Source: an uncultured Chloroflexia bacterium
GTDB lineage: Bacteria > Chloroflexota > Dehalococcoidia > DSTF01 > WHTK01
DNA: 64,000 nucleotides
NCBI GenBank assembly: GCA_963703905.1
Contig: CAVPFY010000006.1
Coordinates: forward strand, 34,918 to 98,917
Direction: 5' to 3'
Numbering within the stretch: the first letter of the stretch is position 1; each line of letters starts with the position of its first letter. The notes under the pieces are model-generated. The model was given only the letters and a program-made list of their open reading frames with translations. It did not search any database and was not told where the DNA came from. The position numbers were made by a program, and so were the translations under genes. Positions 57,449 through 60,688 of this stretch are shown here, piece after piece.

Positions 57449-59483
57449 CTACTTTCCCAATACCTTCAGGGCGTGCGCCGCCACATTCTCCGGCGTGATC
57501 CCCAGGTGGGCCATCACCGCCGGCCCCTTGCCCGACTCGCCGAAACGGTTGATGCCGACCATCGCGCCCCCGGCCCCGGCGTAGCGCTCCCAACCTTGCG
57601 TGATGCCCGCTTCCACGGTCACACGCGCGGCGATGGCAGGGGGCAGCACGCTGTCGCGGTAGGCCGCATCCTGCGCGTCGAACAGCTCCCAGCTGGGCAT
57701 GCTGACCACACGCGCCGGCCACGTCCTGCTGCGCCAGCAGGTCGCGCGCCGCCATTGCCACGGAAACCTCCGACCCTGTGCCGATCAGGATCACGTCGGG
57801 TTGCCCGTTCTCGGCGTCGGCCAGCACGTAGGCCCCGCGTTCCAGTGTGCCGGGCGCACCGGTCCCGGATAGCACGGGCAGGTTCTGGCGGGTGAGCAGT
57901 AGCGCTACCGGGCCGTCGCGGTGCGTCAGGGCATAGCGCCAGGCTGCGGCGGTCTCGTTGGCATCGGCGGGGCGAATGACGGTCAAGGAAGGGATCGCCC
58001 GCAGCGCCATGGCATGCTCGATGGGCTGGTGGGTCGGGCCGTCCTCGCCCAGACCCACCGAGTCGTGCGTCCAGACGAACGTCACTGCCGTTCCCATAAT
58101 GGCGGCCAGCCGGACCGTCGGGCGCATGTAGTCGGAGAAGACCAGGAACGTCCCGCCATAGGGGAAGACGCCGCCGTGCAGCGCCAGCCCGTTCAGCGTC
58201 GCGCCCATGGCGTGCTCGCGGATGCCCCAGCGCACGTAGCGCCCGGCGAAGTCGCCCGGCTTGATATCGGTGACGCCCTTGAAGCGGGTGTTGTTCGACG
58301 GCGTCAGGTCGGCGGAGCCGCCTATCAACGTCGGGATGCGCGGGGCGATGGCATCCAGTACTTTGCCGGAGGCTGAGCGCGTCGCCAGCTTGTCTCCCGG
58401 TTTCCACACCGGCATGTCGGCGTCCCAGCCCTCGGGCAGCACACCGGCCAGCGCGTCTGCGCAGCATCGCCGCCTGTTCCGGGTATTCCCGTTCGTAGCC
58501 GGGCCACAATGCTTCCCAGGCTGCCTGCCGTTCGCGCCCGGCATCCAGTGTTGACCGGTACAGCGCCAGCACATCGTCCGGTAACCAGAACGCTTCGTCG
58601 GCGGGCATCCCGAGCGCTTGCTTGGTCAGGCGGATTTCGTCCGCGCCCAACGGCGAGCCGTGCGCCTCAGCCGTGTCCTGCTTGTTCGGGCTGCCATAGG
58701 CGATGTGCGCCTTGCAGACGATGAGAGAGGGCCGGTCTGTCGCCGCTTGCGCCTGCACGATGGCTGCCTCAATGGCCGGGCATATCGTAGGCGTTCACGG
58801 TCTGCACGTGCCAGCCGTACGCCCCGAAGCGCGAGCGGGACGTTGTCGCTGTACGATAGCGATGTCGGGCCGTCAATGCTGATGTTGTTGTCGTCGTAGA
58901 AGTAGATCAGCTTGCCCAGGCCCAGGTGACCGGCCAGCGAAGCCGCCTCGTGGCTGATGCCTTCCTCGAGGTCGCCGTCGCTGCAAATGGCATAGGTGTA
59001 GTGGTCCAGCAATGCGTAGCCCGGCCGGTTGAAGTTGGCCGCCAGGAAAGCCTCGGCCAGCGCCATGCCCACGCCGGTAGCGAAGCCCTGGCCCAGTGGG
59101 CCGGTGGTCGTGTCTACGCCGGGCGTCACGCCGTATTCCGGATGGCCGGGCGTGATACTGCCCAGTTGCCGGAACTGCTTGAGCTGTGCCAGCGGCACGT
59201 CGTAGCCGGCCAGGTGCAGCAAGGCGTAGAGCAGCATGGAACCATGACCGGCCGAGAGGATGAACCGGTCGCGGTTGAGCCACTTCGGGTCCGCCGGGTT
59301 GTGGCGCAGGAAGCGCGTCCAGAGGACGTGAGCGACGGTGGCCATCCCCATGGGCATGCCGGGGTGACCCGAGTCGGCGGCTTGCACGGCGTCCATTGCC
59401 AGCCCGCGAATGACGTTGGCCGCAGTGACGTCCAGATCACTGAAAGGCGCCGGATGATGCGAAAGATTGGCTACGGTTTGCAC
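57449..59483 (-). CDS. tkt: Transketolase (frameshifted)
   Basis: [64 protein letters not shown]...[24 protein letters not shown]. Confidence 0.96.
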
Positions 59484-59519
59484 GCTTCCTCCGTTTGCGA
59501 TTCATATCGAGTTGGGGCC

Positions 59520-59549
59520 AGTGTAACAGATAGATGCCTCGCGTCTCAA
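59520..59549 (-). promoter_or_regulatory. Putative promoter of tkt
   Basis: On the minus strand TTGAGA-N18-TACACT with TGn. Confidence 0.5.
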
Positions 59550-59578
59550 ACTGTGGCTCCTGCCCGCGCGGTTTTTTC

Positions 59579-59608
59579 TTGACACGAACGTATGTTCTAT
59601 GGTATAAT
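59579..59608 (+). promoter_or_regulatory. Consensus promoter containing a LexA-type operator GAAC-N4-GTTC (59586-59597) between -35 and -10
   Basis: TTGACA-CGAACGTATGTTCTATGG-TATAAT (N18, TGn extension). Confidence 0.75.
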
Positions 59609-59614
59609 AGAGCT

Positions 59615-59840
59615 GTTCGCATGGCCCGGCGAGTTGCGAGTTCTGACTTCTGACTTCTGACATTAAGCAAAGGGCCAACAATGACAAGAGAGGTGCGTTA
59701 AACCCTATAAGACGCACCTCTGTTTTGACGTGTCCGGCGACCGGAGCTCCAAAACATGGATTAAGCGCCGCCAGTTCACGGGGGACACGCCCGGCGGTGG
59801 ATGGCTTAATGTCAGAAGTCAGAAGTCAGAACTCGGTGTC
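59615..59840 (+). ncRNA. Candidate SOS-inducible structured non-coding RNA (ends approximate)
   Basis: Strong LexA-box promoter upstream, no plausible plus-strand ORF, long terminal stem, and birA has a separate promoter. Inference only. Confidence 0.3.
59637..59835. repeat. 199-bp element bounded by perfect 32-bp inverted repeats containing (TTCTGAC)x3, with an internal 10-bp hairpin
   Basis: CGAGTTCTGACTTCTGACTTCTGACATTAAGC (59637-59668) is the exact reverse complement of 59804-59835; internal AGAGGTGCGT/ACGCACCTCT at 59689-59721 is followed by GTTTT. Confidence 0.9.
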
Positions 59841-59844
59841 CTGC

Positions 59845-59874
59845 TTGACGGCCCGCCGTTTCCACCGGTACACT
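59845..59874 (+). promoter_or_regulatory. Putative birA promoter, implying a leaderless mRNA
   Basis: TTGACG-N18-TACACT ends 7 nt before ATG 59882; no SD. Confidence 0.5.
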
Positions 59875-59881
59875 GCACGCC

Positions 59882-60688
59882 ATGAGTGATCTTTCGGCGC
59901 AGCAAATCCAACTCGCATTGCGCACGCGCCGGCTGGGCCGGCCCTGTCTCTTTTTTCCCCAGACCGGCTCGACGAACGATGTGGCCGATGCCTATGCGCG
60001 GGACGGGGCCGCCGAAGGGTTGGTAGTGGTCACCGACGAGCAGACCACCGGGCGCGGCCGCCTCGACCGGCGCTGGTGGGCGCCGCCCGGCAGTGGGTTG
60101 TTGATGTCGTTGTTGCTCCGGCCGCCGATCCCGCTACGCGAGGCCGGCCGCCTGACCATGTGCCTGGGGTTGGGCGCGGTCGAGGGGATCGAAGCGGTGA
60201 CCGGCGTGCGACCCGCGCTCAAATGGCCGAATGATCTGTTGCTCGATGGCCGCAAGCTGGGTGGCATGCTCACGGAACTGCGACCGGAAGGCGACCGTAT
60301 CGCCTACGCGGTGTTGGGGCTCGGCCTGAACGCCAACCTCTCGCGCCGCGACGATACGCTGCCCGCCGACCTGCTCGGGGAAATCGCCAGTCTATCGGAT
60401 GCGCTGGGCCATGCCGTGGACCGGGCGGAGTTGCTCGCCGCTATCCTGCTGCGCTGCGAAGTGTGGTACGATGGATTGCTCGCCGCGCCGCTCGACACGG
60501 TATTGCCTGATGCTTGGGCACAGCGCCTGGACACGCTGGGCCGCACGGTGACCGTCGCCACGCCGCAGGGCGTCTTGCATGGGCGGGCTGTGGGCGTCAC
60601 GCCGGAGGGCGCGTTGCGCCTGGAGGACGCCGAAGGCCGCGCCCAGATCGTGTGGAGCGGCGACGTCACTGCGGTGCGCGCCGGGTAA
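59882..60688 (+). CDS. birA: Biotin--[acetyl-CoA-carboxylase] ligase without an N-terminal HTH (group I)
   Basis: TGSTND, EQTTGRGRLDRRW, LKWPNDLLLDGRKLGGMLTE, GLGLN, C-terminal SH3-like GVTPEGALRL..SGDV. Confidence 0.95.
   Translation: MSDLSAQQIQLALRTRRLGRPCLFFPQTGSTNDVADAYARDGAAEGLVVVTDEQTTGRGRLDRRWWAPPGSGLLMSLLLRPPIPLREAGRLTMCLGLGAVEGIEAVTGVRPALKWPNDLLLDGRKLGGMLTELRPEGDRIAYAVLGLGLNANLSRRDDTLPADLLGEIASLSDALGHAVDRAELLAAILLRCEVWYDGLLAAPLDTVLPDAWAQRLDTLGRTVTVATPQGVLHGRAVGVTPEGALRLEDAEGRAQIVWSGDVTAVRAG

Follow-up and report, generated by a model that had tools for sequence, protein, structure and literature searches.

We analyzed a 64,000-nucleotide stretch of DNA from an uncultured Chloroflexia bacterium (contig CAVPFY010000006.1 of assembly GCA_963703905.1, positions 34,918 to 98,917; the window below) and found a short unit, here called the cassette, at 59579-59835 in the spacer between the divergent genes tkt and birA. 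It consists of a consensus promoter with a LexA box, two complementary arms of heptamer repeats and a conserved core between them. We think it rather likely that the cassette encodes an SOS-inducible non-coding RNA (ncRNA) with a long double-stranded stem, controlled by LexA and probably processed by RNase III. An earlier note, made from the letters of the window, had proposed a DNA-damage-inducible ncRNA here. Comparative evidence now gives that reading strong support: the promoter-arm-core-arm layout recurs in related genomes, the stems covary, and G·U pairing is strand-specific. The family is previously undescribed and has no match in Rfam.

Results

A consensus promoter with a LexA box in its spacer

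The host genome (G000) has 3.93 Mb in 8 contigs (C1, C2 and so on below) and 66% G+C; promoters and boxes were counted on both strands. A consensus scan found the sigma-70-type promoter TTGACA-N18-TATAAT on the plus strand at 59579-59608, with the -35 hexamer at 59579-59584 and the -10 hexamer at 59603-59608. It matches the consensus at 12 of 12 positions, has a TG extended -10 and carries a T-tract upstream. Between the hexamers lies a candidate LexA operator, the Cheo-type box GAACGTATGTTC (59586-59597). The perfect GAAC-N4-GTTC that the earlier note had read between the two hexamers was thus confirmed. Perfect TTGACA-N16-18-TATAAT sites number 4 in the genome and perfect GAAC-N4-GTTC boxes 18, the tkt-birA promoter and box being among them. 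Because both are rare, their coincidence at 59579-59608 is far beyond chance.

The LexA motif is valid in this genome, since boxes were found at the expected SOS genes. LexA-like boxes with one mismatch occur at the promoters of both lexA (C5:125114-125723) and recA (C2:110758-111729). Boxes in or next to promoters also precede an imuB-like Y-family polymerase gene (PF00817), a radical SAM gene and an Endonuc_Holl nuclease gene (PF10107), as well as genes for a 41-aa zinc-ribbon protein and a 26-aa hydrophobic peptide. The operator-in-promoter layout is repeated at the imuB-like gene, at the zinc-ribbon gene and in genus g40 of the same order, where the identically spaced TTGACA-A-GAAC-N4-GTTC-N5-TACTAT is the promoter of a radical SAM gene. 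An operator in the spacer is thus a normal SOS promoter design of the lineage, with the tkt-birA site as its best match.

The transcript would form a long hairpin without an ORF

Transcription is predicted to start at about 59615, 7 nt after the -10 hexamer, and the transcript would open with a short leader (59615-59636). The left arm, three TTCTGAC heptamers with ATTAAGC, lies at 59637-59668, and the right arm, its exact complement, at 59804-59835 (plus strand, like the core features below). The arms are 32 nt each, 100% complementary and separated by 135 nt. TTCTGAC is present three times per arm and nowhere else in the host genome. In the fold, the leader pairs weakly with a 3′ trailer (59836-59845); this leader-trailer pairing is stronger in other members of the family described below.

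Hairpin P1 (59689-59721), recognized from the fold and from covariation, is formed by AGAGGTGCGT and ACGCACCTCT around the conserved family loop UUAAACCCUAUAAGA. In the tkt-birA copy, 59689-59698 pairs with 59712-59721 in a perfect 10-bp helix. Alignments A3, A4 and A6 place motif M1, GUUUUGACGUGUC (family consensus GUUUUGACGCGUC), at 59722-59734. Motif M2, CAUGGAUUAAGCG (consensus CAUGGCUUAAGCG or ACGCGUUAAGAC), was aligned at 59755-59767 and partly pairs with M1 to form helix P2. Covariance models R2 and R3 matched the core at 59686-59769. When 59615-59845 was folded as RNA, the energy was -111.7 kcal/mol with z = -8.2, nearly all due to the long stem; the 135-nt loop folded alone gave z = -1.9.

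The TTCTGAC units put TGA in all three frames, stops are dense in every frame of the core, and the longest open reading frame (ORF) inside the arms is shorter than 20 codons (about 19). The absence of a plausible plus-strand ORF in the 220 nt or so after the promoter, as claimed earlier, therefore holds. No ORF with a start and a stop is conserved among the 18 members of the family, and an AUG-NNU-UAA triplet is confined to one subgroup.

P1 was considered as an intrinsic terminator and rejected: the terminator scan did not call it, and no U-run is conserved across the 18 members. Downstream of P1 the members differ (GCUUCGAC, GUCGCGGC, CUAUUGAC and others), and the P1 loop varies from 11 to 40 nt. 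The inner hairpin once described as terminator-like is thus the conserved family P1, followed in this copy by a U-run that is not conserved. An internal promoter at the TTGACG in M1 was also rejected, as no member has a suitably spaced -10.

Rfam 15 returned nothing overlapping 59579-59845 at E values up to 10, and Rfam searches with eight member loci at E up to 0.1 gave chance microRNA matches only. Searches of the host genome by blastn, heptamer pattern and covariance model found the self-match only. A miniature inverted-repeat transposable element (MITE) or a repetitive extragenic palindrome (REP-like repeat) was rejected on this single copy.

The cassette belongs to a family in two related genomes

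The closest relatives by BirA and tkt are two metagenome-assembled genomes (MAGs) of Anaerolineae type, G093 and G094. A search of the closest relatives' genomes with 59560-59860 returned the promoter itself, with 5 matches in G094 and 3 in G093. At L234, L236, L238 and L239 the promoter is followed by a left heptamer arm, a hairpin core, GTTTTGACGCGTC, CATGGCTTAAGCG and a complementary right arm; the heptamer word of the left arm is different at each of these loci. Scanning with R1, a model of the core's sequence alone, brought the family to 18 members: 9 in G093, 8 in G094 and, in the host genome, the tkt-birA copy. They have in common the heptamer-repeat arms and the conserved core (P1, GUUUUGACGCGUC and UUAAG).

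The LexA-box promoter (at most 1 mismatch in 20 specified bases) is present in 12 of the 18 members, including the tkt-birA copy. Its distance upstream of M1, on the same strand, ranges from 116 to 226 nt; in the tkt-birA copy it is 118 nt, with 0 mismatches. Among the other six, two orthologues have a degenerate promoter, two have another operator, TAGCAC-N4-GTGCTA, and two stand behind a Prim-Pol gene.

Cassettes in G093 and G094 are dispersed, and the genes that they front are unrelated and lie in either orientation. The two genomes share at least four orthologous loci, with flanks 82-92% identical. There the core is kept and both arms are swapped for a different heptamer word, always complementary (for example TTAGAAC versus TTCCGAC). 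Each genome favors one arm word, TTCCGAC in G093 and TTAGAAC in G094. At these loci, then, the core persists and the stems change in concert on both sides.

Model R2 was built from 10 other members, with the tkt-birA copy left out. Its sole match in the 64-kb window was 59686-59769, at a modest 21.6 bits (E 0.017 over 130 kb). With R3 the tkt-birA core scored 51.4 bits (E 3.9e-8) and was the sole match in the host genome. Of the bipartite P1 of the family, an outer and an inner helix, this copy has the outer one, and it also has the loop motif UUAAACCC-UAUAAGA. R3 found no family member in 400 other genomes (222 genera) of the host's class, and among 37 genomes of the order of G093 it found the family only in G093 and G094. 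The core pattern had no match in viral contigs, nor the exact promoter pattern in metagenome contigs. A blastn search of the locus in 40 taxonomic relatives gave chance matches and heptamer-array noise only.

Some members differ in their promoter regions. The orthologous loci L255 (G094:C144) and L258 (G093:C12:236 kb) have the promoter TTGACT-TTT-TAGCACATTTGTGCTA-TCAT, whose spacer contains a perfect palindrome instead of the LexA box; this palindrome suggests that a second repressor may control some cassettes. The decamer TTATGACAAC or a close variant abuts the -35 hexamer in 10 of the 18 cassettes (L234, L236, L238, L239, L247, L250, L251, L252, L256 and L257), and the tkt-birA copy carries GGTTTTTTC in its place. 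At L247 (G093:C4:113.4-113.8 kb) a second LexA-box promoter, TTGACAAAGCGAACAGACGTTCGTATACT, lies within 40 nt of the cassette and leads into a gene starting MDIREKLNVLGQAAQYDD, which resembles the "DNA modification/repair radical SAM" family.

The core is probably structured on the transcribed strand

RNAalifold on ten members predicted P1 and the helix P2 between M1 and M2. In a 16-member alignment, 6 of the 7 P1 pairs had compensatory changes affecting both sides, 89% of cells were paired, and the P1 covariation score was higher than those of 500 of 500 shuffles and of every slid control. P2 varied on one side only. The Rfam search and covariation analysis suggested in the earlier note ended with no Rfam family and with a P1 that covaries across 16 members.

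On the promoter-side strand, G·U cells outnumbered A·C cells about 10 to 1 (16:2 in P1, 34:3 in P2). In 14 of 18 members this strand also gave the more stable fold of the two (Wilcoxon p = 0.005). The cassette boundaries from automatic folding overran the arms, and only the arms and the forward-versus-reverse energies were used. Since a DNA cruciform would favor neither strand, the G·U excess and the strand stability point to an RNA structure on the transcribed strand.

The tkt-birA spacer in other genomes

Both flanking genes have their own candidate promoters, as noted earlier, and both are conserved in relatives. The consensus scan placed the tkt promoter TTGAGA-N18-TACACT on the minus strand at 59520-59549, outside the cassette at its left boundary; a homologous block is kept in relatives with tkt-birA synteny. 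The birA promoter TTGACG-N18-TACACT lies on the plus strand at 59845-59874 and forms the right boundary. Its -10 hexamer ends 7 nt 5′ of the ATG (59882), which makes the birA mRNA nearly leaderless. In the closest relatives (L158 and L145) TTGACG-N18-TTACACT stands in the corresponding place, about 7-9 nt before the ATG. Pfam confirmed the BirA domains (PF03099 and PF02237). The biotin ligase of the window (59882-60688) is a short class I enzyme of 268 aa without an N-terminal helix-turn-helix, and is thus not a BirA-type repressor.

Within the nominal order of the host, neither tkt synteny nor a LexA box was found in the birA neighborhoods of 29 relatives, and the picture was the same in 40-93 genomes of that order: tkt and birA are not syntenic, and birA has no LexA box in front of it. 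The divergent tkt/birA pair is kept in metagenome contigs and GTDB genomes whose BirA is 57-69% identical and which are of Anaerolineae type. In these syntenic relatives the spacer is 110-300 nt long, both the tkt and the birA promoter are conserved, and neither a LexA box nor an SOS gene was found in it. The earlier note had also offered the leftover promoter of a deleted SOS gene as a reading and had named an SOS gene at this position in relatives as something to look for. The search turned up none in the syntenic relatives. Without such a gene or box, and with tkt and birA promoters of their own, these spacers leave the scar and birA-leader readings weak.

Among the sequences found in the relatives' spacers are various palindromic inserts, a MITE-like insertion of 120 nt and an insertion sequence (IS). 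Comparison of metagenome relatives (L060 versus L061, L091, L071) marks the tkt-birA spacer as an insertion hot spot. In one contig a palindromic MITE-like insert of 120 nt comes with a TTCCCTTTGAC duplication and is missing from a near-identical contig; further contigs have an IS with its transposase in the birA leader and a separate insert of about 200 nt.

In the block at 58626-60688, BirA is 62-69% identical and Tkt-N 81-85% identical to proteins of Anaerolineae-type MAGs. BirA is 69% identical to that of G093 versus 39% to that of a same-genus genome. For the recA locus the figures are 81% to the nominal congener versus 48% to G093 (from an antisense-frame query, which serves only as a proxy for DNA similarity). 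Another biotin-ligase-like gene is located at C1:138344-138949. Exact-protein look-ups of BirA and Tkt-N recorded no other assembly. These identities suggest horizontal acquisition of the tkt-cassette-birA block from the G093/G094 lineage or, alternatively, a chimeric contig.

Heptamer-repeat hairpins are common in the host genome

Heptamer repeats have been reported in cyanobacteria and Xanthomonas (PMC4692102). Tandem Repeats Finder listed 978 period-7 arrays in the host genome. Inverted pairs of arrays numbered about 87, versus 12 in the control, with a median loop of 48 nt. Their word families are TCAGCTN, CAGTAAT, GGAACAN, TGGAATN, CAGAGTG and GCATAAN; examples lie at C1:4514-4931, C1:1084409-1084853, C2:696244-696480, C2:698942-699210 and C3:259709-260367. 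Because such hairpins occur genome-wide, a 32-bp stem taken alone does not argue for a dedicated RNA gene. The terminal stem of the earlier note is real and its arms are perfect; it is one of this class and not a unique fold. In a loop-versus-loop comparison, none of the other heptamer hairpins of the genome shares the tkt-birA core.

Heptamer arms bracket a 23S_rRNA_IVP gene (PF05635, E 9e-39), a tRNA-Ala in the rRNA spacer and a 23S rRNA insert, and also a whole cyclophilin gene and a 106-nt loop just upstream of the lexA promoter. RNase III is known to excise 23S rRNA intervening sequences (PMC4990558). As the tRNA-Ala and the 23S insert are sites of RNA-level stem processing, we counted the arms around them for an RNA reading of the cassette.

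A heptamer array lay within 70 nt of 3 of 8 SOS promoters; the figure was 1 of 27 for the other near-consensus promoters and 2.8% for random positions. The three are C6:94503 (the tkt-birA promoter, an orphan), C5:125060 (lexA) and C2:111905 (recA). This association was spotted after the fact and is suggestive. Arrays below the filter threshold flank the radical SAM SOS promoter as well.

Other LexA-box promoters in the host and its relatives

At C4:72668-72830 (plus strand) of the host genome, a near-consensus promoter with LexA-like boxes GTGTTCTAAT and CGAACAAACGTAC stands ahead of the 26-aa hydrophobic peptide MLIIAIAVVICSAYLLWQIWEADLVD, a candidate SOS-induced membrane toxin or division inhibitor. 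At C7:111720-111960 (minus strand) a TTGACA promoter with two LexA boxes, one inside and one after it, leads into the 41-aa four-cysteine zinc-ribbon protein MPQRRRLIYRPSGPRCPDCGG..., for which no Pfam match was found. The order's LexA-controlled radical SAM gene was considered as the origin of the tkt-birA promoter and rejected, because its orthologue is intact at C2:339997-340842 with its own box. Both lexA and recA can be read only across 3-4 different frames. The assembly thus carries a large number of indel errors, presumably as an unpolished long-read assembly, and these explain the completeness estimate of 60% for 8 contigs.

In G093 (L237/L259) and in G094 (L235/L248) the same LexA promoter drives an ORF with Prim-Pol (PF09250) and DUF3987 domains, and a cassette follows right after its stop codon. 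At L232 (G094:C85), L235 (G094:C108:556-860) and L237 (G093:C14) the same LexA-box promoter is followed by a conserved leader of another kind, about 170 nt long (GCAGGTAATGGCGTAGATGTTGACATG...), which ends in a terminator-like hairpin before the Prim-Pol and DUF3987 gene and has no Rfam match. The Prim-Pol/DUF3987 unit has the look of a mobile element that is controlled by LexA and carries a leader RNA of its own, and its position hints at a link between cassettes and this element. A tblastn search with both protein halves found no Prim-Pol/DUF3987 homologue in the host genome at E up to 1e-3, in an assembly that may be incomplete; no copy of the element's leader was found there either.

Discussion

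A model for the cassette

We propose that in the undamaged cell LexA sits on GAACGTATGTTC, between the -35 and -10 hexamers of a very strong promoter, and would block RNA polymerase. DNA damage would lead to RecA-stimulated self-cleavage of LexA, and the promoter would be freed. The transcript from about 59615 should fold at once into a giant hairpin, in which the 32-bp heptamer stem and the weak leader-trailer pairing surround the 135-nt core. That core would present P1, the single-stranded motif GUUUUGACGYGUC and the UUAAG motif. A long perfect stem is an RNase III-type substrate; cutting probably releases the core as a small stable RNA, which we infer to act in trans, and probably keeps the transcript from running usefully into birA. 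On this model 59579-59835 would be a complete ncRNA gene and the sole copy of its family in the host genome.

Several points weigh against this model. The family is known from three genomes only, and one cassette in each relative genome lies directly behind the LexA-driven Prim-Pol/DUF3987 gene. The tkt-birA copy is the most divergent member, as its score with the model built without it reflects, and it lacks the inner P1 helix (GGGN-UUAAA-NCCC) and the GGCCCCAUUU/AAAUGGGGCC inner stem. Since 16-17 of the 18 members come from two related genomes, the covariation counts do not represent independent events; in addition, alignment A6 was fitted to the covariance model. M1 (GACGCGTC) and M2 (GCTTAAGC) are perfect DNA palindromes and could be protein-binding sites. 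A search of the host genome for a complementary target or a similar loop gave chance-level results only. There is no clear terminator 3′ of the stem, and readthrough into birA is possible. LexA binding at GAACGTATGTTC is predicted from the motif only.

Other explanations

The main rival is a role at the DNA level tied to the Prim-Pol element, which we consider unlikely. The cassette would then be an origin, a recombination site or a non-autonomous mobile element of the LexA-controlled Prim-Pol/DUF3987 element; the heptamers would be iterons or terminal repeats, GACGCGTC and GCTTAAGC protein-binding palindromes, and the LexA promoter a means to activate or mobilize the site during the SOS response. 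The cassettes behind the Prim-Pol ORF in G093 and G094, the perfect palindromes, the dispersal of a multi-copy family beside unrelated genes and the insertions that relatives have received in the tkt-birA spacer all fit this explanation. So does the use of one arm word per genome, as expected if a genome-specific protein reads the arms. However, a cruciform would not produce the G·U excess on the promoter-side strand, and most copies sit at orthologous loci in two genomes, which makes them long-lived and not recently transposed. The host genome has a single copy without a Prim-Pol/DUF3987 homologue or its leader, the core pattern is absent from viral contigs, and core-less heptamer hairpins are so common genome-wide that the arms are not element-specific. 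A second, damage-inducible promoter of the birA operon, with the hairpin as a chance heptamer element in a long 5′ leader, seems quite improbable to us. It is true that birA lies 274 nt downstream in the direction of the promoter, that the stem is not followed by a canonical terminator, and that heptamer hairpins lie at many intergenic places in the host. Against this, birA is served by a separate promoter 7 nt from the ATG, which the closest relatives also have, and a LexA box upstream of birA was found in no relative. None of the downstream genes (class I biotin ligase, PMT_2 and Mrr_cat) has an SOS function, the promoter-plus-cassette unit fronts unrelated genes in both orientations in G093 and G094, and the core is conserved, unlike a chance passenger.

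It is highly improbable, in our estimate, that the cassette is a decaying relic, whether of a lost SOS gene or of a dead horizontally transferred copy. A relic could account for a single, most divergent copy in a genome whose class yielded none in 400 others, and whose tkt and birA resemble the G093/G094 lineage far more than its nominal relatives. But decay would strike the promoter, the operator and the arms first, and these are perfect (12 of 12 positions in the promoter, all 32 nt in the arms); P1 is still a perfect 10-bp helix, and no relative has an SOS gene at the tkt-birA site. A tiny SOS-induced protein or type I toxin masked by assembly errors is scarcely credible. The many frameshifts of the assembly, with lexA and recA each split over several frames, and the small proteins of the host SOS regulon (the 26-aa hydrophobic peptide and the 41-aa zinc-ribbon protein) would allow it, but the heptamer arm stops all three frames whatever the indels, the core is dense in stops, and no ORF is conserved among the 18 members.

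Comparison with known systems

The leader-trailer processing stems of rRNA and tRNA operons are substrates of RNase III. As in these stems, the 5′ and 3′ flanks of the cassette pair over tens of base pairs around an enclosed RNA; unlike them, the cassette encloses an RNA of about 135 nt and its stem sequence is replaced quickly between genomes. In retron msr-msd loci, the inverted repeats a1/a2 flank a structured ncRNA of 150-250 nt behind a promoter. The cassette has a similar arrangement of inverted repeats, structured RNA and promoter. A retron ncRNA was nevertheless rejected, because no reverse transcriptase gene is adjacent, the neighbors being tkt (Transketolase_N) and birA (biotin ligase) here and varying genes in G093 and G094, and no Rfam match was found.

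By analogy, the cassette would work most like DinR (PMC10907235) and the leader-trailer stems. [quoted passage not shown] In both systems the synthesis of an ncRNA would hang on a LexA-repressed promoter (predicted for the cassette) and the RNA would be released by an endonuclease (proposed for the cassette), and one copy of the family stands at the 3′ end of a LexA-driven mRNA, that of the Prim-Pol gene. Unlike DinR, most cassettes stand alone with their own promoter and a 25-45-bp enclosing stem, and there is no sequence similarity. The type I toxin-antitoxin RNAs tisB/istR and dinQ/agrB (PMC3567139) resemble the cassette as short intergenic transcripts under LexA control (predicted for the cassette), but they encode a small hydrophobic toxin and an antisense RNA, whereas the cassette has no possible ORF and no antisense partner was found in the host genome.

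In Mycobacterium tuberculosis, a bacterium whose SOS box is of the GAAC type, LexA-bound sites are likewise associated with the non-coding transcripts MTS1082 and MTS2823; no induction was demonstrated there, and at one of these sites an SOS box is missing (PMC3381160). By contrast, the box of the cassette is perfect, lies inside the promoter and is conserved across paralogues. Inverted tandem 7-nt units are shared with the cyanobacterial short tandemly repeated repetitive (STRR) sequences and the Xanthomonas and Nostoc GGGNATC repeats (PMC4692102) and with the stems of 23S intervening sequences (PMC4990558). These have neither a dedicated promoter nor a conserved core, whereas the cassette has a LexA-box promoter and a covarying core.

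Significance

Stand-alone ncRNA genes directly repressed by LexA are very rare, and none has been described for Chloroflexota. The cassette would be a clean, testable unit of a 30-bp promoter-operator and a hairpin RNA of about 220 nt, whose paralogues and orthologues already reveal the constrained parts. The replacement of both arms at orthologous loci, with flanks about 90% identical and the core kept, is a striking case of concerted stem evolution, and its mechanism would be of general interest. The family bridges the non-protein part of SOS regulons and the heptamer-repeat intergenic hairpins of several phyla.

A further idea, which we regard as distinctly doubtful, is that DNA damage would switch on sibling RNAs, and that RNase III cutting would yield the conserved core RNA together with short heptamer duplex RNAs acting on the roughly 87 heptamer hairpins or on the Prim-Pol element. 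The targets would be the heptamer hairpins at mRNA 3′ ends, in rRNA inserts and at IVP cassettes, or the LexA-controlled Prim-Pol mobile element. If true, the puzzling heptamer-repeat hairpins would for the first time be wired to a defined signal, and the SOS response would trigger an RNA-guided layer acting on repeat-marked transcripts.

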